Origin: Methanobacteriota archaeon
Lineage (GTDB): Archaea > Halobacteriota > Bog-38 > Methanoflorentales > Methanoflorentaceae
Reading direction: 5' to 3'
NCBI GenBank assembly: GCA_963720465.1
Contig: OY970393.1
Span: forward strand, 2,080,001-2,144,000
DNA: 64,000 nucleotides
The translations under genes were made by a program, and so were the position numbers. The notes under the pieces are model-generated. The model had not been told where the DNA came from and ran no database searches. It saw nothing but the letters and a program-made list of their open reading frames with translations. Positions 22,091 to 33,652 of this stretch are shown here, in pieces. How positions within the stretch are numbered: the stretch's first letter is position 1; every line of letters starts with the position of its first letter.

Positions 22091-22711
22091 ATGAAAAGAA
22101 TTATTATAATTGATTACGGTCTCGGCAATTTAAGAAGTGTAACGCGCGGCCTCGAGCGTGCAGGGGCGCAGGCGGAGATCACTTCAGAAGCCAGTCAGCT
22201 CGTCCGAGCAGACGGCTTGGTGCTTCCAGGAGTGGGGGCATTCAAAAGCGGCATGCACAACATCAAAGATAAGAAAAGAGCGTTACTGCGTGCCGTAGAC
22301 GAAGGTACACCCGTGCTAGGAATCTGCTTAGGGATGCAGATGTTGCTCACCGCGAGCGATGAAGGTCGGAGTGAAAGCAGGCCGGTCGAGGGCTTAAATC
22401 TCCTTAAAGGCTACGTCAAGCGATTCAACTTTGGGACCACCTCAGAGAAACTTAAAATACCCCACATGGGATGGAATCGCCTGGAGGTGGTAAAAGAGAA
22501 CGCTTTGGTCCAAGGTGCCAACGGTGCATACGCGTATTTCGTTCACTCGTATTATGTGGAGCCCGGAGAACATACGGTTGCAACTTCAAACTATGGGACC
22601 GCATTTGCCGCTGTCGTTGCGAGCGGAAACGTTTTTGGAACGCAATTCCATCCAGAAAAGTCTTCTTCAGCCGGCTTGCAGATGTTGAAGAACTTTGTGG
22701 AGATATGCTAA
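22091..22711 (+). CDS. hisH: Imidazole glycerol phosphate synthase glutaminase subunit
   Basis: IDYGLGN, LPGVGAF, GICLGMQ, PHMGWN, YFVHSY, QFHPEKS. Confidence 0.97.
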   Translation: MKRIIIIDYGLGNLRSVTRGLERAGAQAEITSEASQLVRADGLVLPGVGAFKSGMHNIKDKKRALLRAVDEGTPVLGICLGMQMLLTASDEGRSESRPVEGLNLLKGYVKRFNFGTTSEKLKIPHMGWNRLEVVKENALVQGANGAYAYFVHSYYVEPGEHTVATSNYGTAFAAVVASGNVFGTQFHPEKSSSAGLQMLKNFVEIC

Positions 22712-24045
22712 TGGACCTTGAAGGCTACGCGAAAAGAGCCCTGAGGCAAGGCTTAGCAAAAGAAGTAATAGAGCGCACGCTCGCAGAGCGAATTCTAGAG
22801 GTCCGCGACATTCCTCTCGATTCCGCAGTGCGTATAGCCCAAGCGGTTCTCGAGGAAGCGGAACGCACTCTTTGTGACAGGGAACGATCTGGGGTCACGA
22901 TGGGTAATTTCGGGGTCGGCTCACGGGGATCCGGCGATTTCTATGTACACGAAGAAATAGCGAGGATCATCGGAAAAACGAGCGCGATTGTCGGCTCTGA
23001 TCAGCTTGATGATTCCGGAGTAGTCAGAGCAAAAGGTGACTTGATAGTGGTAACAGTAGACGGCATGCATTCGCGCTTGAGTGACTTCCCATTTCTCGCG
23101 GGATTCCACGTCACACGTGCATCCTTGCGGGATATCTATGTCATGGGTGCACAGCCGGTCGCCTTGTTTTCCGACATTCATCTCGCTGACGACGGGGACG
23201 TATCGAAGGTGTTTGACTATACGGCAGGCATCGGGGCAGTAGCGGACGTTATGAATGTTCCGTTAGTCACCGGAAGCACGTTGCGGGTTGGCGGCGACGT
23301 GGTGATCGGCGACCGACTGACAGGGTGCGTTGGTGCCGTCGGCGTAGCGAGCAATCAAGGCTTGACGGCGCGGATCAATGCACGCGAAGACGACGTTATT
23401 CTCATGACCGAAGGCGCTGGCGGCGGAACCATAACAGCTACAGCGCTGTATAATGGCCGTTCAGACGTGGTAAAGCAAACGTTGAACCTGAAGTTTCTTC
23501 ACGCGTGCGATAGGTTGCTACGAGATGGTCTCGTCACCAAGATACATGCGATGACTGATGTCACGAACGGCGGCATACGAGGAGATGCGGAGGAAATATC
23601 AAAAACGGCGCAGGTAAAGCTCGTTTTGGAAGAGGAGAAGATACGGCGGCTCATCGATCCCACGGTTTTGACTATGCTCGACGATTTGCAGATCGATTAC
23701 ATGGGCGTCTCCATTGATTCATTGCTCATAGTTGCTCCGGCTCAGCTCGAAGCGGAGATAAAAAGCACCCTAAACGGCGTCATAAAGGTCGATCAAGTAG
23801 GCCATGTTGAGTCAGGGAGCGGCGCCGAAGCACTCCGTGATGGTAAGCGGTTCACTATCACGCCGAAGTTCCGCGAATCAGCCTATACGCCCGTAAAGAA
23901 AGTGGTCGGTGAACACGCAGATCATCAAGAAATACAACAAATGCGTGCCCGGGTCGATTTGGCTGCCGCGCGCGCACTGCGCATGAAAGAACAAATGATC
24001 ACCTATCTCCGAACGGGAGACAACCTGCCCGACGTTAGCTGTTAG
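22711..24045 (+). CDS. AIR synthase-related (PurM/HypE fold) protein
   Basis: MDLEGY start, GVGSRG.GDF, DGMHSRLS, MTDVTNGG. Confidence 0.88.
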   Translation: MDLEGYAKRALRQGLAKEVIERTLAERILEVRDIPLDSAVRIAQAVLEEAERTLCDRERSGVTMGNFGVGSRGSGDFYVHEEIARIIGKTSAIVGSDQLDDSGVVRAKGDLIVVTVDGMHSRLSDFPFLAGFHVTRASLRDIYVMGAQPVALFSDIHLADDGDVSKVFDYTAGIGAVADVMNVPLVTGSTLRVGGDVVIGDRLTGCVGAVGVASNQGLTARINAREDDVILMTEGAGGGTITATALYNGRSDVVKQTLNLKFLHACDRLLRDGLVTKIHAMTDVTNGGIRGDAEEISKTAQVKLVLEEEKIRRLIDPTVLTMLDDLQIDYMGVSIDSLLIVAPAQLEAEIKSTLNGVIKVDQVGHVESGSGAEALRDGKRFTITPKFRESAYTPVKKVVGEHADHQEIQQMRARVDLAAARALRMKEQMITYLRTGDNLPDVSC

Positions 24046-24072
24046 GCAAAAACTAGCCCGTTGGATAGGGCC

Positions 24073-24098
24073 TTATTATGGCAATAGTCGCACATCCT
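24073..24098 (+). repeat. Left att site TTATTATGGCAATAGTCGCACATCCT
   Basis: Matches 33329-33354 with one mismatch; on the - strand it reads as a displaced gene end DVRLLP-stop-stop. Confidence 0.9.
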
Positions 24099-25225
24099 TT
24101 TCGGCTCAAACTGATCAATTTTTTGGGTGCTTTGATGCTATAGAGGGCTCGGGGGAGCTTTTTGATTCTGGCCGGAAGTTGCCTACTTTAAGCGAAAAGT
24201 TGTCTACTCCACAGCAGTCGCTGCAAAGTAGCGAGTGCACAATTGAAACAGCCCCCTGTAGTGTGAGCTGTGTTTCGTTTGGCCAGAATCCCACAGGCGA
24301 GACGCTTAGTGACATCGCATTGCCATTCACTGCTGGTGAACTTTCAGGGTATGTGTCCAACCGTTTGTTAGGTCTAGCAGAACCCTCCTGCATTTGGATT
24401 GAACGGGCTGCGAAGAAGTTGTGGCAAACTACCCTTGGCGTCATTTCGCAACATACCTTGCAACAACTGCGAGCGGAAACGCTACAGCGGTATCACTGCT
24501 CTACGAGCCACAGCAAGATCCTCTCGTTTGCGCAGTCTTTTCTGTCGTACCTCACGAAGGTCAGGCTCGATACCCTCTATCTTGCCTTCGGAATCTTCTT
24601 GCAGATGTCCAAAGCGGTGAAGGTACGAAAAGCAATTACGTCGCGCATTATTACGCAGGTCGACATCAAAAATGTGCTTCGATACATCAAACGAGCTGAA
24701 CAAGAGGGCAAGATATCGCAGGGCAGATCGTTGCAATATGTAGCGTTTATTCTGTTCGGAGCATACACAGGACAGCGGGCTATGTCGACGATTTCGCATC
24801 TCAAAGTGGGGCAATTTAGAGCTGCTCTTAAAACTGAAAAGCCAGTGCTGCTCGTAAAAGCTAACCAGGACAAGATAAGGATGGAACACTATGTGCCACT
24901 TTGTCCTCAAGTGGTGCGAGCTATTGAGCCGCTGTTGGACGGAAGAGGCGATGATGAACTTATGTTCATATACAACTCGCTGGTCATATGGCTAAAGCGA
25001 GAGCATATTCTCCTTTCACGGATAGCAACGCATTTCACGCCTGGAGATCTCAGGAAGCCGGTAGAACAAACTGGCGATATTATTCAATGGGATCAGTCAA
25101 ACCGAGCTTACGTCCTGACGCATGGCGTTTCAGGCGTTTCGTGGGCACATTATCGGCATCCATTGCCAGAGAACGTATATGATATCTATATGGAGTACTG
25201 GAGAAACGTCGATTTCACAGTCTAA
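24074..25225 (+). CDS. Tyrosine integrase, C-terminal (catalytic) portion
   Basis: YTGQR (R), DKIR (K), DLRK, LTHG and AHY (Y). The frame is open from the att site to the stop, with no ATG start near the 5' end. Confidence 0.85.
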   Translation, partial: YYGNSRTSFSAQTDQFFGCFDAIEGSGELFDSGRKLPTLSEKLSTPQQSLQSSECTIETAPCSVSCVSFGQNPTGETLSDIALPFTAGELSGYVSNRLLGLAEPSCIWIERAAKKLWQTTLGVISQHTLQQLRAETLQRYHCSTSHSKILSFAQSFLSYLTKVRLDTLYLAFGIFLQMSKAVKVRKAITSRIITQVDIKNVLRYIKRAEQEGKISQGRSLQYVAFILFGAYTGQRAMSTISHLKVGQFRAALKTEKPVLLVKANQDKIRMEHYVPLCPQVVRAIEPLLDGRGDDELMFIYNSLVIWLKREHILLSRIATHFTPGDLRKPVEQTGDIIQWDQSNRAYVLTHGVSGVSWAHYRHPLPENVYDIYMEYWRNVDFTV

Positions 25226-25254
25226 GACTGTAAGTAACTTGATTTCAGTGCTGA

Positions 25255-25367
25255 GCCCCGCTGAAAGGAAAAACTGTGAACCTATGGGCGATATACTACA
25301 GTGGGATCAGTCAAATAAGAACTACATACTCACTCATGACGTTTCTGGAGTCGATTGGCGGTTCTAA
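25255..25367 (+). pseudogene. Second, diverged integrase C-terminal fragment
   Basis: RKNCEPMGDILQWDQSNKNYILTHDVSGVDWRF aligns with RKPVEQTGDIIQWDQSNRAYVLTHGVSGVSWAH. Confidence 0.85.
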
Positions 25368-25923
25368 CTGAATTCGCCTTTTAACAACCGCTCATTATGT
25401 TTCCGTGCGGTCCCGTATGCGTCTGCGATTCCGACTAACCAGACAAGCGGATACGTAATGAACCGATTAGCACGAACATTAGAAGAACGTTCATCACCTG
25501 AACTATCATAAGGACGATTCCTTTCGCTATCTGTCCGTTATATATCTGTCCTAAACCGGCCCAGAAGAACGATAGCACAGCAGCAACACCGGGATTTTTC
25601 TTATACATTGATATTAACGCCAAGTCTGAAGGTGTTAATTCTCTCGGTGCTGGAGCTAGTGCTGGCGCTGGTGCTTTATCCAAAAACCTGAACGGATCTG
25701 CTGCTCTTCTCCCAAAGTCAAGGTAGGCCTTAAAGCCCCTCACCACTAGATCATCTTTTACGTCGTCTTTAGCTGACTGCTTGAGTTCTTGCAGTTGGTA
25801 TACTTGTGTTCCACTGATTGGCGACAGTGTGTTGTTGAAACCTGTGCCACACCTAGGACAATAATTAGAATCTGGTATAAGTTCGGTGCCACAATTTATA
25901 CAATTTCTTTTGCTTTCGTCCGT
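25364..25923 (-). pseudogene. Zinc-ribbon + TM2-like membrane protein with ACG at the start position and a late frameshift
   Basis: The frame extends upstream to ACG-DESKRNCINCG...CPRCG. It contains KNPGVAAVLSFFWAGLGQIYNG. After VLIG the expected tail FITYPLVWLVGIADAY lies in another frame. Confidence 0.7.
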
Positions 25924-25941
25924 TTGTGTATCCGGCCTCTC

Positions 25942-26002
25942 TGACGGAAAAATGAATCAAAAGCGTCAGATGGGGCCAATGAAGCTTAAGAATTGCTATC
26001 CG
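25942..26002 (-). repeat. 61-bp intergenic repeat, copy 1
   Basis: 58/61 identical to 26641-26701; lies just 5' of an RBS. Confidence 0.9.
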
Positions 26003-26051
26003 GTCACGAAGCGTAGAGCGTCGGCAGCTGAATCAGAGGGTCGCTCTAAAA

Positions 26052-26627
26052 TTACTTTGCTGTCGCCGTCATCGTTCCCCCCGTCACGAACTCGTCAGTT
26101 TGCACGATCCAACTTGCTCCAACCGAGAGCGGGAATATACTTATCGAATTAATTTTGACAGCCAGGTGTTTGACTGCTGCATCATGCGCCATCACTGTTT
26201 TATACGGGCTGACCATGTCCGTCGGGCCCGGTGCATTGACACCTGTATCGTTTTGCGTGAATCCAACGCTCTGTTCGTTGTAGAACTTCGCCGCGTCGTC
26301 GGTGCTTGAGAATTGCGTGATATTGTAAGTATACGTTGTTATCGTCCCATTTGGATAGAAGCTGTTATATGTCGTGTTTTCGATCGTTGCGCTCATTCGT
26401 GCCGCATCCGACCCGTTTTCGACAACATTTGAACTGACGACCGTCGAGTTCTCTCCGGGATTGTTCTTGATGTTCGTCAGGAGTGCGTTTGCCAATTCGA
26501 CTGCCTTGTTCGACGGCGAGACTGTGTTTTGCGCAGTTTGAACCGGATTGGTACATCCGCTTATACCGACGACGAGAACCGCAATGATGCCTAGCATCAA
26601 AACCATTTTTAACGTAATTTTGATCAT
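26052..26627 (-). CDS. Predicted lipoprotein
   Basis: Signal peptide with ISGC lipobox; Thr/Asn/Ser-rich. Confidence 0.8.
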   Translation of the reverse strand: MIKITLKMVLMLGIIAVLVVGISGCTNPVQTAQNTVSPSNKAVELANALLTNIKNNPGENSTVVSSNVVENGSDAARMSATIENTTYNSFYPNGTITTYTYNITQFSSTDDAAKFYNEQSVGFTQNDTGVNAPGPTDMVSPYKTVMAHDAAVKHLAVKINSISIFPLSVGASWIVQTDEFVTGGTMTATAK

Positions 26628-26640
26628 TTATCGCCCCCCT

Positions 26641-26701
26641 TGACGGAAAAATGAATCAAAAGCGTAAGACGGGGTCAATGAAGCTTAAGAATTGCTATCC
26701 G
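26641..26701 (-). repeat. 61-bp intergenic repeat, copy 2
   Basis: 58/61 identical to 25942-26002. Confidence 0.9.
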
Positions 26702-26734
26702 TGGTTTAGTGGATGACTGTTGACTCGTTGCATC

Positions 26735-27352
26735 TCACGCTACTACTTGAAACGTTGTCACTCCCGTCGATATTCCTGCTCCGGTAAACGCGCACTCGAT
26801 CGTGTGCGTTCCGATTGGCAGACCCTGTGCAGTAGGCATATTATACGTCAAACCACCCGGATTGTCGCAGATCGTACCACTAGCCACTAAGACAAGTTGT
26901 CCGTCAATATACCAGAACGGCGTATAGCACTGTGTCATATCAGAGCACGTCGCACTGAAATATGTGAACGTTACGTTTGTCTGACTGACTGTCGCCGGAA
27001 CTGCGTCCCAAGTTAGTGTCGTTGGCACGTTTGGTGTCGGCGTCGGTGTGGAGGTCGGTGTGGGCGTCGGCGTTGCGGCTATAGGTGTCGCCACTGCGGG
27101 AGTCGGCGTTGCGGCTATAGGTGTCGCCACTGCGGGAGTCGGCGTTGCGGCTATAGGTGTCGCCACTGCGGGAGTCGGCGTAGACGTAGACGTCGACGGT
27201 AACGCACTTGTTTGTGTAGGCGTCGCGGTCGATTGGCCCGTGGGCGCCATCGACGGGTTACTGGGGACGTTTATTTGGATGCAGCCAGCCACCCCCGCAA
27301 GGACAGTCACGAGCGCGACTACAACGCATGCCATTACCACCTTTTTTATCAT
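26735..27352 (-). CDS. Predicted lipoprotein with Thr/Pro stalk and C-terminal Ig-like domain
   Basis: VAGC lipobox, TPTPAVATPIAA x3, beta-rich end (GTHTIECAFTG). Confidence 0.8.
   Translation of the reverse strand: MIKKVVMACVVVALVTVLAGVAGCIQINVPSNPSMAPTGQSTATPTQTSALPSTSTSTPTPAVATPIAATPTPAVATPIAATPTPAVATPIAATPTPTPTSTPTPTPNVPTTLTWDAVPATVSQTNVTFTYFSATCSDMTQCYTPFWYIDGQLVLVASGTICDNPGGLTYNMPTAQGLPIGTHTIECAFTGAGISTGVTTFQVVA
27066..27181. repeat. 36-bp coding tandem repeat, about 3.2 copies
   Basis: GTCGGCGTTGCGGCTATAGGTGTCGCCACTGCGGGA x3 plus 8 bp. Confidence 0.95.
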
Positions 27353-27408
27353 ACGCTTAGCCTCATACGGCTTTCTTCCTCAAAAAAAGAAAGAGAAGAG
27401 GTAAAGAA

Positions 27409-27933
27409 CTACGACAGGTTCGTTACCACTGAATTAAAGTCGTCGTTGTATGTTAAAGTCGTTGCTTTCGCGCCCTGCGGGATTTCGAACGCTATCTGGC
27501 CTGTAACATGCTCTCCGGCATTCGTACCTGACACAACATTAAGTGGGTTGGTAAGGTCGAACGAAGAAGAAGAGTATTGGTAGACGGTTCCGTCGGCGGT
27601 AGTCAGTTTGAAATAAAGCGGATTGCCGATGTCCCAATTGTTCTCGTTGAGATTTTTGACTGTCACGTTGAAGATGAGGTACTCGTTGCCTGCTTGGGGC
27701 GTGTCTACGGCGTAGCCGCTCCCTATTTGGCTTGCTGTGTACTGCGAATTGACCGTTACGGCGATGGCTGAGCTGCCACTAGCACCGCCACCGCCCGACG
27801 AATTTTGCGTCGTGGTATTCGTCGTGCAACCACAGGTTGCGACCAAAACGAGCGCACCGATAAATAATAGCGGTAGCGCCTTTTTCAACGGCATCTTGAT
27901 GTACCGTTTCATCATCCTAGCTATTGGATTCAT
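27409..27933 (-). CDS. DUF4352-family lipoprotein
   Basis: Close paralog of 6972-7490; GGAGG RBS. Confidence 0.82.
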   Translation of the reverse strand: MNPIARMMKRYIKMPLKKALPLLFIGALVLVATCGCTTNTTTQNSSGGGGASGSSAIAVTVNSQYTASQIGSGYAVDTPQAGNEYLIFNVTVKNLNENNWDIGNPLYFKLTTADGTVYQYSSSSFDLTNPLNVVSGTNAGEHVTGQIAFEIPQGAKATTLTYNDDFNSVVTNLS

Positions 27934-27949
27934 ATTTAACCTCCTATCT

Positions 27950-28477
27950 TTAAATGATTGACATCCCGCAGCCGCTGCAGAATATTGCCTTTGGTGTCAA
28001 TTTCTTTCCGCACCGTCCGCACACTGTGTAGCTGTGGGTGCTGCTGAGCGCCGTTCCGTTTAAAGTCGACGACGCGCTAGTGTATGAAGAGGTCTCTTGC
28101 GCCGCCGCAAATGATTCAGAATGTGCAACCGACGGCTGATGCGAGACCACCTCGTGCTCGGTCTTCCGTGCGAAAATCACAATAGCTCCCACAAGGAAGA
28201 ACAAGAATGGAAGCAGTCCGAAGAGGCTGATGGAAACGAGCACGCCAACTGCTGCAATGAGCATCAACGTGCCTCCAATTAGCCTCCTCCGTTCAAAGAC
28301 GCCGCCTGTTACCCCGACAATGGAGAATATGAAAGCAGCTAGGCCGAGCCCGTAGAGCGTAGTGCTCTGCGAGCTTGTTGAATATGTCGCTGAAATACTT
28401 CCTACCAGAACAGCGATGATACCTCCCACAAAACCAAGAAACCCCCCAATGAGTCCTATCCAAAATGCTTTACCCAC
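27950..28477 (-). CDS. DUF4064-like membrane protein with C-terminal zinc ribbon
   Basis: Paralog of 7514-7870 plus CGRCG...FCSGCG. Confidence 0.75.
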   Translation of the reverse strand: MGKAFWIGLIGGFLGFVGGIIAVLVGSISATYSTSSQSTTLYGLGLAAFIFSIVGVTGGVFERRRLIGGTLMLIAAVGVLVSISLFGLLPFLFFLVGAIVIFARKTEHEVVSHQPSVAHSESFAAAQETSSYTSASSTLNGTALSSTHSYTVCGRCGKKLTPKAIFCSGCGMSII

Positions 28478-28573
28478 AGATTTCCCCCCTTAGGTTCAGC
28501 AATGAGTCTGCGCCGCACTAGCGACACATGACCATTAAGTTGTAGCTACAGTCGTCTCGCCTTTTGACTACTC

Positions 28574-28990
28574 CTAGTTGCCAGCAAGCGGTTGTTGTTG
28601 AGCACGCTGTTGCAACATTCTTTGATTCATCATCCGCTGATAAATGGTGGGCTGAACCTCGTTGATTTTGTCCTTCTCAATATGAAATACGGGATTCTGT
28701 GTAATACCGAGGTCGTCTTCGTACGTTAGCAGCATGAACATCTGTTTCTTCTTCCACGCAAATGCGAAAAGACCCGTTAACAGCAATCGTGTCTTTGTTA
28801 GCTTGTCTTGCGACATGCTCGAAACGTTTGTTATATTTAGATAGGGTATCATGGTTGGAAACTCGGGTATTTCCAGATAATCCGGATTGAGCGCCAAATT
28901 CACATCCATTTCCTTTGGATACCCAGAATGCCCACCAAGATATTTTGCTTTGTACGAGAAGTCCGTTCCTTTTTTTCCAAATAGTGCCAT
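28574..28990 (-). CDS. Hypothetical protein, possibly PH-like fold
   Basis: YLGGH motif, IPY.NI..V, short hydrophobic segment LLLTGLFAFAWKKK. Confidence 0.65.
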   Translation of the reverse strand: MALFGKKGTDFSYKAKYLGGHSGYPKEMDVNLALNPDYLEIPEFPTMIPYLNITNVSSMSQDKLTKTRLLLTGLFAFAWKKKQMFMLLTYEDDLGITQNPVFHIEKDKINEVQPTIYQRMMNQRMLQQRAQQQPLAGN

Positions 28991-29005
28991 AGTTTACAAC
29001 TCCGT

Positions 29006-29230
29006 TCAAATGATAGTTCGTTCTCCGTCCGCCTTTGGGTCAACAAAACTCTTTGTCCCGTTGACCGCGTTCTGCTGTATGTACTCCTCAAGCTGAGCTT
29101 TTGTGATACGGTATTGGTTGCCTATCCGAATCGCTTTCAGCTGTCCTTTCTTAATATGCTGATAGATTGTGGTTCGTGTAACCCGCAACATCGTCGCAAC
29201 TTCTAGTGGTGTGTAGAGTTTATCTATCAT
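29006..29230 (-). CDS. Excisionase-like HTH_17 DNA-binding protein
   Basis: LYTPLEVATMLRVTRTTIYQHIKKGQLKAIRIGNQYRI. Confidence 0.88.
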   Translation of the reverse strand: MIDKLYTPLEVATMLRVTRTTIYQHIKKGQLKAIRIGNQYRITKAQLEEYIQQNAVNGTKSFVDPKADGERTII

Positions 29231-29490
29231 TTTATAGCGGTTCTTAATGTTTTTTATAGTATATAATTATTGTCAATTTTATCAATAATATAAATCTTGG
29301 TTAATTCTTCAATATTTTACCTTAATTAACCCAGTTTTTAACTTTTTATTTAGATTATGTTAAATCCACAGCTCAGATTGGTGTGTAACGACACCGATTG
29401 CGTCACATACAAGAACAAAAGCAGAAGCAGATTTTTGGTCGTCCGTTGCACTCAGATGTACCTGTTTCAAAAAAAGAGAGGAAAAGACGA

Positions 29491-29550
29491 TTACAAGGTA
29501 ACCGTCAGATTGTTGGTAAAGTCGTTGTAAATTAGGCTTACTGGGTTAGC
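29491..29550 (-). pseudogene. 3' remnant of a third DUF4352-like gene
   Basis: ANPVSLIYNDFTNNLTVTL-stop resembles AKATTLTYNDDFNSVVTNLS and is followed by a similar pyrimidine-rich tract. Confidence 0.55.
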
Positions 29551-29959
29551 ACGTCAGAGGAGCCTGTATCAGGCTCCGACCTCGTAGGACAAAAAGGTCG
29601 GAGAGACGGGCAAGCAGAATAGTTAGCGGTCGCTCTGCCATTTGTTCATAGTCGTCGACGGCCCAAACCCGCATATCGAAAAAAGAAAGAATGAGCTAGG
29701 AGCTACGGACTGCTAAAAGAAACGCGACATAACATCTTGGCTGGAGCTGCTTAAAAACTCTGTTATTTCCAAAGATAGGTTCGACATGTTTAGGGCACAG
29801 GAAAGCCAAGGAGCGCCACATTTCTTTGAGCTTTGCAATTGGAACCCTGTCCAACGGGTCGCGATTAACCTCTAAGTTAGCGAACGAGGAACTCGTCATC
29901 TTGAACTCAACCTCCATATAAAAAAGAAAGAGTTTTTTTTAAGTGGCATGGCATCTATT

Positions 29960-31760
29960 CTACAGCCACTCCTGATCGCAGAGACATATCTTTAACAAAA
30001 GTAGGATCTTGGACTCAGCAAGACACTCCGGCTGATTAATGCCTGCTGAGTATCGCTCTTGATAAGGAGCTTCCGACCTCTCAAAACGTACCACTAACTC
30101 GCTATTTTCACTTCTTATGCGTGTGATGTGTTTTATCCCACTTAGGCGCGATAACGCTTTGTTGACAAGTCTTCCAAACATATTCTCTTCGGGCCCTGTT
30201 TCACGGAAATCCAACAGTTGTTTCCGGAATTTTGCCGCAATAGAATCAACGTTTGTTCTGGCGTAGTCGTAGAGAGATTGACCATAATCGGTCCTCAAAT
30301 CGTATGATCTCGATTCTCTTCCAAGTTGAACAATACTCTGGAGAGTATTATCAAACAAAAAGATATTCTCAGCTTCTATAGCAGCGACACTTAGTTTTGT
30401 TGATGCATTCAGACACTGATAAACGTACTGAGAGTCGGAGATGCCTATCGCTGCTTTTCCACCGGCCTTTATAAAATTCGAAAAACTTAAACTCCATCCT
30501 CTTTCCGGCATCATGCGCATTTCGGCGCCTTTTTCTCCCGCACCACGGGCGATAAATATTGGTATCAACGATGCTTGATTGTTCTCGTGTTGAAGGAGAT
30601 CTTCCACAATTGTTGCCATAATATCCATTAAAAACCTAGCAAATCCGATGCCTGGCTTACTCCAAAGCGTGTGTGATGTACGGTTTTCATATGCTGACTG
30701 AAGTTTGTCCGCTTCTGTCAGTACGTATGAGCCACAGATATTCATGAATTGCGTGGCAAACAGATCGCTTACTTCAGGTCTGATCGTCGCTAAGCCAAGA
30801 TTTAAGAGAGTAATCCTAAGGATTTCAACTAGTCTCACGCGGGTTCGACCTTCGATAAACTCCTTATTAGCTTGCTCTTCCTCTCGCGTTGGATAACCAA
30901 GCTCAGAGATTAGTCCAATCGCTTCTAGCGCTCGTTCTACAACTTGTTCAAACGTATGAATGTCGTGGTTTTCGATAGCAACGATGCCGAGATTTACAAG
31001 AAAATGAAATGGGTCTCTGGTATCAGGAGACTCTTTGATCTTAACAGAAGGGGATAGAAATGATAGTTGATTCCACCAACCAACGCCCTTTAGCGGCTGA
31101 TCGTCTATATCCATGTCCTGAAGCTCTTGCTGATACGCTTCGATGATCGGTATATATCGCTTCAGGAAATCCCGCAGCGGTATCTCAGACGCTTCTTTTT
31201 CTAGCATCGTAGAAGGCGAGCCTTCATACCGCGCTATTTTTCCAAGTAATAGACCGCCACACGCGACTAACGGTAAGAACACTAGAGCGGCTAGGGAGGG
31301 TAATGCGTTATCTGTCACTGTTCCAAACACAAACAGGGTGCCCAGCAAAATTACAGCGGACAAAGAGACCTGCGAAGACGGGGCCGACCTCAGCAAGGCG
31401 CGATATGGAAATAGCTGGTATTCGAGGAAAGAGAAATTTATCGCAAATACGGCAATGGTTATGTTACTGACCAGGAGTGCATCCACATAAACATTCAATG
31501 GCGTATTCCATCCAAGGATAGCCAAGATCACCGCGAGAGTCAATCAAGAATGAAGCGATTAGTATCAGTGATTGTTCTCCAACCTTAGTCAGCGTCAAAT
31601 GCGTGCTTCGTGCTTGAAGCTTAACTCTTTCAAGCCACTCTTTGGTTTTAGAGGGCTGATCTGGCCTTTGCTCCTCGAATGAGTTACCACAATTCTTGCA
31701 AAAACGTGCGTTTTCCGAGCTATTATATCCGCATTTCTTGCAGAATCGGAATTTATACAT
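29960..31760 (-). pseudogene. Zinc-ribbon + multi-TM helical protein split by a frameshift near 31545
   Basis: CKKCG...FCKNCG ORF runs into a hydrophobic helix (LILIASFLI) that continues as TLAVILAILG in the next frame. Confidence 0.6.
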
Positions 31761-32188
31761 CTAGTGTAGGATGCAAATACCTTGAAGATAATATTTGCTT
31801 TTTTCAGATGATCCAGCTACAATTCCGTCTGACGGGAGCCACGATCTACGCTTAAATGTTACAAATAAGGATCTCTCTCGCTTGGCTTCGCTCTTCGCAC
31901 TTGCGGTCTTCGAAGATTTCGAGCACCGAAATCGCAAGTTTTTCTGCGTCGTGTGTGCACATTACCTGCTGCAACACTTCAATGATCTGGCGGCGGGTGG
32001 CTCTGCCTCGTTGAGGTTAGCTCGCGGCCCTACCAGAATCGATGTGACAAACGTAGTCGACGTCTGAGCGAGCTGTTCTTTCAACTCGAGAGCAAACGTT
32101 CGCAAATACAACCCATCAAGCCGTTCGGCTCTGCCGAGGCAGTAGCTGCACGCCGCCCCGTATAATACCACGTGCCAGTAAAAAAAAA

Positions 32189-32509
32189 TTATTTCTCCAG
32201 TTCCCCCAATATCTTCATGGCCTTGGTGAAGGGCGGCATTCCCGATGTCAGTAAAACCACTCTCAGGACATCCACTATCTCTTCCTTGGTGATTCCCAGC
32301 TCCTTCATGCCGCTCACCATCTGCTTCTTGGCGGCCCGGTCGTCCGAGGCGGCGGCAGTGATGGCTATGGCAATCAGCTTCTGGGTCTTGTAGTCCAAGA
32401 CCTTACCAGTATAAGCTGCCTCATTCAAAGATACAATGGCTTTATAGAGGTCTGGATATTCGTTCTTGGTCCTTGCCATTCCCTCGCCGAAAAAGACTTC
32501 ATCCTTCAT
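32189..32509 (-). CDS. Carboxymuconolactone decarboxylase (AhpD-like) family protein
   Basis: LDYKTQKLIAIAI...GITKEEIVDVL...GMP. Confidence 0.85.
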   Translation of the reverse strand: MKDEVFFGEGMARTKNEYPDLYKAIVSLNEAAYTGKVLDYKTQKLIAIAITAAASDDRAAKKQMVSGMKELGITKEEIVDVLRVVLLTSGMPPFTKAMKILGELEK

Positions 32510-33113
32510 AACATCTCACTGGATATTCCTTGTCGTCCTTGGAATTATAGATTTCGTCATTCTCTGACCAAAGACCAGATCAGGATTCTAAGCTGTGCAT
32601 CTCGCGCTCTCTTTCGACCCTTTCTAATGGCTCTTCTAGCGGTTTGGTATGTAAGGAAGCAGCAAAGAGGTTGTAGAGTGCTTCTTGGTTAATTTTTCCT
32701 GTATAAATCTGAGAATTGATGGCTTGCACACCGTTCCCGGTGAGATGTGAGAGTAGAAACTGTGCTATGGTGGTGCTCAAACCATGAAGTGGTCAAAATG
32801 AATACGTTCCAACGATCATACGTTCGTTAGATCCTTCTTTTTTCCACGACCTTGGTTACCGCCGTTTAACTGGTGCCTTCTCTTTTTTGGCGGGTTCTTC
32901 TGCGTTCGATGTTTAGTCAAGAGGGTCCAATCATAATGATTAAGTGTGCGGCGCCGCTACGCACGTACTATGCTAGCTGCTGAATGTTCCCCATATTATG
33001 ATGTGATGTCAAACCGCGAGCTGCTGGAGATTCACCGCAGCAAAATCTCACTTCACGAGGTGAATGGAAACAGAATCTGAGCGGTTAAGATGCTTGGCGG
33101 CAATCAATAACCT

Positions 33114-33354
33114 ATGCAACCAATCTGCACGCACAAAATCAGCGTTCAGAGTTCAAAGCCGTCGCACGCATATCCGATTATACGGCTGCCGCGTGAGTTT
33201 AGCGGGCTTGTAGGTGCCGCTGCTACCATCTATCAAACAGTCCACGATGGAGCACAAGCATTCCTTGTGGTCGTCAACAGTCAGCAAGACCATAAGCTCA
33301 AAATGGGCTCAGAATCAAAAAAGAGGCTTTATTATGGCAATGGTCGCACATCCT
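33114..33354 (+). CDS. Tyrosine integrase, N-terminal portion (runs into the right att site)
   Basis: MQPICTHKISVQSSKPSHAYPIIRLPREF (AbrB-like); crosses att in the same frame as the C-terminal half. Confidence 0.8.
33329..33354 (+). repeat. Right att site TTATTATGGCAATGGTCGCACATCCT
   Basis: Encodes the last codons and the stops of the SWIM gene on the - strand. Confidence 0.9.
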
Positions 33355-33652
33355 GGTACCACGCGTTGACAAAATCAACTAAGCCTTGCTGTTTCGCGAT
33401 TTCGACAGCGATCATGTGGCTGCATTTCATGATATTTCGTGAGGCATTGAACAAGAAGTCCTTACAGGTGCACGCAGCGTCTTCGACAATGTACTCATCA
33501 GCCTCTCCCACGACAACATAAAAGTCTTTATAGCGTTTAACGCGTCCTTCTTTCGCTATTTCAAGTCCCTTTTTGCCTCGATTGCCGTATTCGCGCTCGA
33601 TTTGTTGCTTAAAGGCATCCGCAAACAAAGGTCCTTCTCCTACCTTACTCAT
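33332..33652 (-). CDS. SWIM zinc-finger protein
   Basis: VKRYKDFYVVVG, CTCKDF...CSH. Confidence 0.85.
   Translation of the reverse strand: MSKVGEGPLFADAFKQQIEREYGNRGKKGLEIAKEGRVKRYKDFYVVVGEADEYIVEDAACTCKDFLFNASRNIMKCSHMIAVEIAKQQGLVDFVNAWYQDVRPLP

Follow-up and report, generated by a model that had tools for sequence, protein, structure and literature searches.

Integrases of the SSV1 and pTN3 type carry the attachment (att) site attP inside their own gene, which is split when the element that encodes them integrates. As set out in PMC8371274, self-splitting, or suicidal, integrases are archaeal, go back to one origin and have Phage_integr_3 (PF16795) as a common domain, and section 8 of that paper gives the catalytic consensus as R...KxxR...Y. 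It lists archaeal attB sites in protein genes for BJ1, Msmi-Pro1 and NitGar-E6, the integrases of which are not called suicidal there, and the questions that it raises as open include the change of specificity of suicidal integrases and the retention, at non-tRNA sites, of the dyad symmetry required by tyrosine recombinases. The passages on att sites in Badel et al. 2020 (PMC7253208) place the att of all 73 integrases in tRNA genes and state that tandem insertions were never seen. The main text of Krupovic et al. 2019 (PMC6563490) assigns 14 of 68 thaumarchaeal elements to the 3' ends of protein genes, one target being a Zn-finger protein, and reports that NitEve-E3 carries an SSV1-like split integrase, the target of which is not given in that main text (Supplementary Table S2). 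The present analysis concerns a 64,000-nucleotide stretch of the genome of a Methanobacteriota archaeon (contig OY970393.1 of assembly GCA_963720465.1; the window hereafter is this whole stretch), in which a 9.26-kb segment is very probably, with a probability of roughly 87%, a cryptic self-splitting integrase element that integrated through an intragenic attP at the 3' end of a gene for a SWIM zinc-finger protein. Self-splitting has until now been described in elements that use tRNA genes, and its occurrence at a protein gene would extend it.

In its architecture the locus resembles SSV1. The attP lies within the integrase reading frame near the 5' end (about codons 64–78 of the annotated 335 in SSV1, about codons 71–81 of 455 here), and integration parts the gene into an N-terminal piece, int(N), and a C-terminal piece, int(C), which come to lie one at each end of the element with direct repeats flanking it. 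Unlike SSV1, which uses a tRNA gene in a hyperthermophile, this element has a protein-gene target and a host of cold peat and sediment samples, and no fusellovirus genes are present. The pTN3 and pT26-2 elements of Thermococcales, Archaeoglobales and Methanosarcinales are comparable in that self-splitting integrases belong to cryptic plasmid-like elements, that one integrase family serves many att sites and that the int halves persist widely in genomes; however, the passages of PMC7253208 on their sites place all of them in tRNA genes without tandems, whereas remnant arrays and tandem junctions are common here and the target is a protein gene. The thaumarchaeal elements at protein genes are likewise found in the 3'-distal part of their targets, the ends of which they re-supply, but their att are described in the text of PMC6563490 as mostly short, 8–25 bp. 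A search that covered mainly openly accessible articles, without their supplements, turned up a description neither of the present integrase family nor of a protein gene targeted by a suicidal integrase; NitEve-E3 may be a case of the latter.

Attachment sites and the split integrase gene

The element is bounded by two copies of a 30-nt direct repeat, 24069–24098 and 33325–33354, with two mismatches (positions 24072 and 24086); in the shorter 26-nt version of the earlier note (24073–24098 and 33329–33354) there is one mismatch. The distance from repeat to repeat, 9256 bp, defines the integrated element as 24073–33328. No match to the repeat at three or fewer mismatches occurred in 100 dinucleotide-preserving shuffles of the window, and the whole genome (2,313,764 bases) holds just these two copies at up to five substitutions. 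The left copy, attL, combines the host left flank, the core and the start of the C-terminal integrase piece, and the left-flank homology of the empty sites in relatives ends within it. The right copy, attR, reads on the minus strand as ..QDVRPLP followed by two stops, the end of the 106-amino-acid SWIM open reading frame (ORF), and on the plus strand as integrase codons of about 71–81. The proposal that the repeat duplicates the last codons (seven in this version) and both stops of the SWIM gene was thus confirmed. Because the mismatches lie at 24072 and 24086, the crossover would fall between these positions if both date from the integration event; at 24086 the host-type base G is found in some of the relatives' loci, including that of the nearest relative (G009). 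Contigs of four public sequencing runs bridge both attL and attR, and the integrated arrangement is therefore no assembly artefact of the window. Dyad symmetry of the rebuilt attP and attB was not above chance, as 112 and 180 of 200 shuffles, respectively, were equally good.

The two ends of the element carry the two parts of one reading frame. At the right end, the ORF from 33114 (+) reads through the repeat as ..KKRLYYGNGRTS, and at the left end the matching frame, followed from 24074 (+), reads YYGNSRTS.. and meets its first stop at 25223–25225, after 383 codons. Joining 33114–33328 to 24073–25225 by script gave 455 codons and then the first stop, which bears out the matching frames, the 455-residue rejoined recombinase and the 9256-bp spacing given in the earlier note. 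int(N) (33114–33329, +) comprises 72 codons, of which the first ~52 are very conserved (MQPICTHKISVQSSKPSHAYPIIRLPREF..), and its ORF continues in the integrated state into the SWIM flank to 33521. int(C) (24074–25225, +) runs from the att core to the stop, and its 383 codons cover the catalytic region together with a linker and a core-binding-like region. The conserved region upstream of int(N) (32741–33113, +), which is repeated beside other int(N) copies in the genome, is presumed to be a promoter or regulatory region.

Homologues in which the two parts are one protein were found in other records. An unsplit gene inside a 2.74-Mb chromosome record (locus L113, 2539–3933) has a single open frame of 465 residues with both parts, and in two natural fusions, P0134 (368 residues) and P0150 (333 residues), the C-terminal region comes after the N-terminal domain in one chain. 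The L113 frame may be a tandem junction that rebuilt int or a non-suicidal member of the family. Intact homologues that lack the N-terminus encoded at 33114–33329 would have spoken against the earlier reading, and all three carry it. The rejoined 455-residue protein aligned with L113 in a single collinear high-scoring segment pair (HSP) at 45% identity over residues 9–454, with P0134 in one collinear HSP at 49% over residues 1–371, and with the junction peptide P0123 in one HSP at 86% over residues 1–120. P0123 is one of four such peptides (with P0313, P0314 and P0318) in which IntN is followed by ..RLHHGKGRTS and FSAQ.., the rejoined junction of SWIM-targeting elements. Homologues of the separate pieces are many: IntC has 518 at E ≤ 1e-3, C-terminal pieces are annotated by gene callers as stand-alone proteins of 300–390 residues, and 149 of the best 150 IntN representatives (clustered at 50% identity) are 50–229 residues long, i.e., split fragments. 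The sole long match among these 150, P0203 (1141 residues), was discarded as a low-complexity repeat protein.

Among integrases that use different att sites, the first ~52 residues of IntN hardly vary, and residues 55–85 are hypervariable in both length and sequence. The AbrB-like character suggested earlier for this N-terminus found no support: the AbrB/MazE/SpoVT profile (PF04014) matched one of 29 IntN homologues at E = 0.2, a profile search of the PDB with IntN returned nothing relevant (a dynein chain at E 1.9), and the Atlas search gave scores below 0.8 and no usable match. For 16 distinct integrated copies at the SWIM site taken together, the ratio of nonsynonymous to synonymous polymorphism (pN/pS) of IntN was 0.20, compared to 0.16 for the adjacent SWIM gene, with a pooled synonymous divergence of 0.215 versus 0.179. 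After the split, the N-terminal half thus does not evolve in the manner of a pseudogene and looks to be under selection, which would mean that remobilisation of the elements is frequent or that the half-gene has a function of its own.

Taken as a mechanism, these features point to a free circle with an intact integrase gene, the intragenic attP of which would recombine with the end of the SWIM gene, where the last codons and the stops serve as attB. In its free form the element would encode a single 455-residue tyrosine-type recombinase with a ~52-residue N-terminal domain, a hypervariable linker that contains the att, a core-binding-like region and a catalytic region. In this account, integration brought int(C) to the left end and int(N) to the right and duplicated about 30 bp; the SWIM protein came through unchanged and unharmed because the att core re-supplies the 3' end of its gene and thus its C-terminus. 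Since the genome has no intact copy, excision would depend either on a complete integrase supplied in trans or on the two halves complementing each other.

Empty and occupied sites in related genomes

The target gene (33332–33652, –) encodes a 106-residue protein that remains intact after the insertion and matches the Pfam SWIM profile PF04434 at 21.6 bits (cut-off 19.6; E 1.6e-4). The left host neighbour (22471–24045, +) encodes an AIR-synthase-related (AIRS) protein with Pfam AIRS and AIRS_C domains, and ARAGORN detected no tRNA in the window. The SWIM protein was searched in 40 related genomes, and the 19 best loci besides that of the window were inspected. Fourteen of these are empty sites, in which AIRS and SWIM are convergent and about 26–35 nt apart and left flank, core and right flank join exactly at the repeat, as predicted for the flanks without the element; 11 are from genomes of the same genus and three from the sister genus (L028–L030; genomes G018, G022 and G023). 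An attP inside the integrase gene that is split by its own integration, with the 3' end of a protein gene rather than a tRNA gene as the target, is thus supported as originally proposed.

In four of the 19 loci the same IntN (94–99% identical) abuts the SWIM gene, and the occupants differ: G011 has a ~3-kb remnant with IntN present and no IntC, G014 an insertion of ~4.9 kb in which IntC is cut after 48 residues, and G010 one of more than 8 kb. At the remaining locus, that of the closest relative (L034, G009:C37:1-5535), the SWIM of which is 98% identical, the att core is retained and adjoins other DNA, and neither IntN nor AIRS was found within its 5.5 kb. To the left of the core lie genes that by eye are nitroreductase-like, hemerythrin-like, methyltransferase-like and DUF169-like, and an 80-nt match to the int 3' remnant.

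A metagenome scan with the junction peptide P0123 returned 55 loci, with IntN abutting SWIM in 24 and AIRS abutting IntC in 11, and two of these loci, on one 227-kb contig, imply an element of ~17 kb at the SWIM site; the scan gave many integrated junctions and no clean attP contig. In a further genome record (L115), AIRS (96% identical) adjoins an IntC that carries a frameshift. The empty sites of relatives together with the varied occupants therefore identify the SWIM 3' end as a recurrent, polymorphic integration site and exclude deletion in the relatives as a serious account of the pattern. Near-identical hosts can carry different elements, as in L077, where AIRS is 99% but IntC 87% identical, and the synonymous divergence of IntN and the adjacent SWIM gene is discordant in both directions (for example 0.32 for IntN and 0.08 for SWIM in the comparison with L059, and 0.10 and 0.18 in that with L040, over only 72 codons). 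Both are signs of recent mobility of the group.

Identity of the integrase

Residue numbers in the following refer to the IntC of the window (P0001), one of 57 members in the family alignment. The phrog_216 'integrase' profile matches 42 of the 57 (best E 5.7e-12; P0001 itself 1.1e-6) and phrog_1 matches 27, and PF00589 gives weak matches in 20, the best of which (E 3.5e-4) is below the curated cut-off. Invariant in all 57 sequences are R235, K267, R327-K328, H350 and Y360. The spacings from R327 to H350 (23) and from H350 to Y360 (10) equal those of the matching invariant residues of the SSV, pT26-2 and pTN3 integrases in our own reading of the alignments, and on this basis R235, K267, R327, H350 and Y360 are the putative catalytic residues. 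The assignment as a tyrosine recombinase is well supported by behaviour and motifs, not by fold, and as judged from homology the integrase is a member of a large undescribed family of at least 518 proteins.

The likeness to SSV1 extends to these residues, as arginine, lysine, arginine and tyrosine are conserved at similar spacings. The motifs also differ: G-D-L-R precedes the second arginine here (LGDLRK in the family, with G324 at the position of the lysine), whereas the SSV1 type has KxxR, and a histidine stands ten residues before the tyrosine where SSV has an arginine. Membership in the SSV1/pTN3 family, which the earlier note had inferred, was not borne out. PF16795 did not match P0001, was not among the families listed (25 of 27) for the 57 homologues, gave no match at E ≤ 10 at any IntC locus of the window's own genome, and was absent from the Archaeoglobus, Methanoculleus and Methanospirillum members. 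A tblastn search with P0001 had no match in collections that contain SSVs, pT26-2, pGE2 and pTN3, and hhalign against alignments of SSV and of SSV, pT26-2, pGE2, pTN3 and TPV1 gave probabilities of 0.2%, 1.4% and 0.9%; against three canonical integrases of the same genome it found nothing. The Archaeoglobus family member L149 and Int-pT26-2 showed no similarity by BLASTP (E 1.4). The integrase thus appears to work like the SSV1/pTN3 type and yet is not a detectable member of that superfamily by sequence, to which its family may be very distantly related.

Hosts, attachment sites and a probable change of target

Use of tRNA genes is the prevailing habit of the family, and the retargeting to a protein gene proposed in the earlier note is seen against this background. 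Among the 79 family loci in genomes that were tested for tRNA, 73 could be evaluated (five lay too close to the end of a contig, and one lacked a long match), and in 65 of the 73 the 450 nt preceding the conserved core region contain a whole tRNA or a ~40–45-nt half tRNA. These tRNAs and halves, of Val, Asp, His, Leu and Gly types, occupy the linker position equivalent to that of the SWIM core here, and the C-terminal pieces of many homologues start, by our reading, with translated tRNA T-arms. By record titles, the hosts are bog_38, Methanomicrobia, Methanomicrobiales and Methanoregulaceae metagenome-assembled genomes (MAGs), together with Methanoculleus sediminis, two Methanospirillum species and Archaeoglobus MAGs.

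In a maximum-likelihood tree of the 57 proteins (midpoint root), the four proteins with SWIM-type att fall within a nested clade of seven (support 100/99), the other three members of which (P0007, P0009 and P0010) have no att in their called ORFs. Given this root, the SWIM-targeting integrases would be one shallow clade that switched from tRNA, and the move would be recent and local. In the sister group of the SWIM-targeting integrases, which is of the type of P0007 (~70% identical; L090 2941-4122 and L060 6001-6309), the att reads ..SPFAGTGIGFELPRTH.. and lies 18–90 nt from the start of an alcohol-dehydrogenase-like gene, with no tRNA detected; this site may be a second non-tRNA target.

The host genome itself is rich in pieces of such integrases. 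A hidden Markov model search of its six-frame ORFs returned 76 IntC-like and 31 IntN-like fragments in 2.31 Mb, for example in G000:C1 at 330000-335325 (+), 364852-395341, 1533123-1559637 (–) and 2292297-2312031 (–), and many of them form same-strand arrays of the last 25–70 int codons only, 0.2–3 kb apart with no IntN between; the 3' end of int seems to be kept, or copied again, in preference. The remnant of a second integrase C-terminus is also present in the window (25233–25364, +), ~10 bp downstream of the int(C) stop and 52% identical to IntC residues 315–359, and metagenome loci L073, L075, L077 and L078 show such a remnant at the SWIM site as well. Because dozens of integrase fragments and arrays of remnants occur in this one 2.3-Mb genome, the results suggest that self-splitting elements shape the genomes of abundant peat archaea.

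Self-splitting is in this way found in a family of proteins that our tests leave unconnected to the SSV superfamily, and in hosts from cold peat and sediment samples. The finding adds to the known protein families of suicidal integration and to its known targets alike, with close tRNA-targeting relatives available for comparison, and it offers a natural experiment on the change of specificity of suicidal integrases and on dyad symmetry at non-tRNA sites. A further-reaching proposal, possible and on balance doubtful, is that the family represents a second self-splitting integrase lineage with no detectable relation to SSV, pTN3 or pT26-2, that it provides the main mobilome integrase of bog_38-type and Methanomicrobia archaea, that an att within the linker lets specificity jump from a tRNA half to a protein gene, and that IntN remains functional after the split. 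Should this be so, IntN could rebuild an active enzyme with int(C) or act as a regulator or immunity factor, and 'suicide' would here be a reversible split-enzyme switch rather than the death of a gene.

Alternative explanations and state of this copy

The alternative with the most in its favour is a composite, in which at least two successive integrations occurred at one att, the two halves need not stem from one element and the 9256-bp circle never existed. Such a history would leave debris of the kind seen directly behind int(C) at 25233–25364 and in the arrays of integrase remnants at the SWIM site of metagenome loci L077 and L078. Metagenome loci at this site also have chimeric IntCs (L039 and L056 are 77% identical over residues 1–132 and 50% over 156–383), and chromosomal junctions of IntN, att and a 5' remnant of IntC do occur, as on the 287-kb contig of P0313. 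We nevertheless regard a composite as unlikely here, as the halves join in frame into a protein collinear over its full length with unsplit homologues, and as the genome has one att pair and the element no internal copy of IntN or of the att.

An ordinary element of the lambda or pNOB8 type would have an integrase that starts near 24179 and, in the ORF at 33114, an unrelated small gene. Gene calls are compatible with this, as C-terminal pieces are called as stand-alone proteins of 300–390 residues and IntN-like ORFs are nearly always short; it is nonetheless very improbable, given that IntN and IntC form one frame in P0134, P0150 and L113, that the frames match across the repeat copies, and that the C-terminal pieces of homologues begin with tRNA-half peptides, so that their frames exit the att site. 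That the 9.3 kb are ancestral and were lost in relatives by deletion between the repeats has nothing for it beyond the formal symmetry of insertion and deletion and can be dismissed, since 14 of the 19 loci in relatives are empty sites, three of them from the family's second genus, the occupied sites differ in content and size (~3, ~4.9, >8 and ~17 kb), and the integrase halves in the region belong to a family of which the genome has dozens of other copies.

Integration of a self-splitting element through its intragenic attP remains the preferred explanation, and several results weigh against it. P0001 has no Pfam, NCBIfam or PDB sequence match, and the tyrosine-recombinase assignment draws on sub-threshold or PHROG profile matches together with conserved residues. 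Contigs of the four runs contain neither a circle junction (33328>24073) nor one that skips 24073–33328, although contigs drop rare forms. The junction peptides P0123 and P0313 end about 55 residues into IntC, with P0313 on the 287-kb contig mentioned above; because members of their cluster are chromosomal and truncated, these peptides are read as tandem or remnant chromosomal junctions and were not counted as free circles. No free replicon of the family is known, since no relative was found in IMG/VR (searched with P0134 and the family alignment) or, by tblastn, in phage and plasmid collections. No replication, virion or capsid gene was recognised in the element, which is therefore named a cryptic integrated element, one conserved cargo gene is frameshifted, the repeats differ at two positions, and there is no intact full-length integrase of the family among the 76 IntC-like and 31 IntN-like fragments of the host genome. 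Taken together, the frameshift, the repeat mismatches and the lack of an intact integrase and of a replication gene mean that this copy may be trapped.

Cargo genes and minor features

Rfam returned nothing across the element. A block of small membrane or secreted proteins (25435–28990, –) includes a weak TM2-like match, two lipoprotein-like proteins, a DUF4352 protein, a membrane protein with a zinc ribbon and a 138-residue unknown. The block is followed by a gene for a 74-residue HTH_17 protein (29006–29230, –; PF12728, E 8.6e-17) of the excisionase/MerR-type helix-turn-helix kind, a candidate regulator or directionality factor, and by one for a 527-residue protein with a membrane N-terminus and a helical remainder (29960–31543, –), which matched only unnamed families in the Atlas.

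A conserved element gene at 31740–32171 (–) is frameshifted in this copy and reads YGAACSYCLGRAERL..RQIIEVLQQVM.. and also ..YGAACSYCLGRAERLDG.YLRTFALELKEQLA..RQIIEVLQQVM..; an intact version of 112 residues is found near genome position 342 kb, and the DNA module at 31886–32176 has 13 further matching places in the genome. The adjacent gene (32189–32509, –) encodes a 106-residue protein that matches the carboxymuconolactone-decarboxylase (CMD) family. One contig in each of the four runs contains a junction 32141>32659 (shorter side 25 letters) that skips 517 bp with the CMD gene, and this junction fits a paralogous copy of the module without the CMD gene near genome position 167 kb. Because this other genomic copy of the module has no CMD gene, the gene resembles a cassette that was put in between conserved modules of the element.

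Two kinds of repeat occur within the block of small membrane or secreted proteins. Three tandem 36-nt units (27059–27181; 96–100% identical) encode a PT-rich repeat, ..TPTPAVATPIAA.., in a 205-residue lipoprotein-like ORF (26735–27352, –). A 70-nt direct repeat (25933–26002 and 26632–26701; 90% identical) overlaps with its first copy the ORF 25886–26152 (+) and lies with its second copy a few nucleotides upstream of the lipoprotein-like ORF 26052–26627 (–), and is possibly a duplicated promoter or leader.

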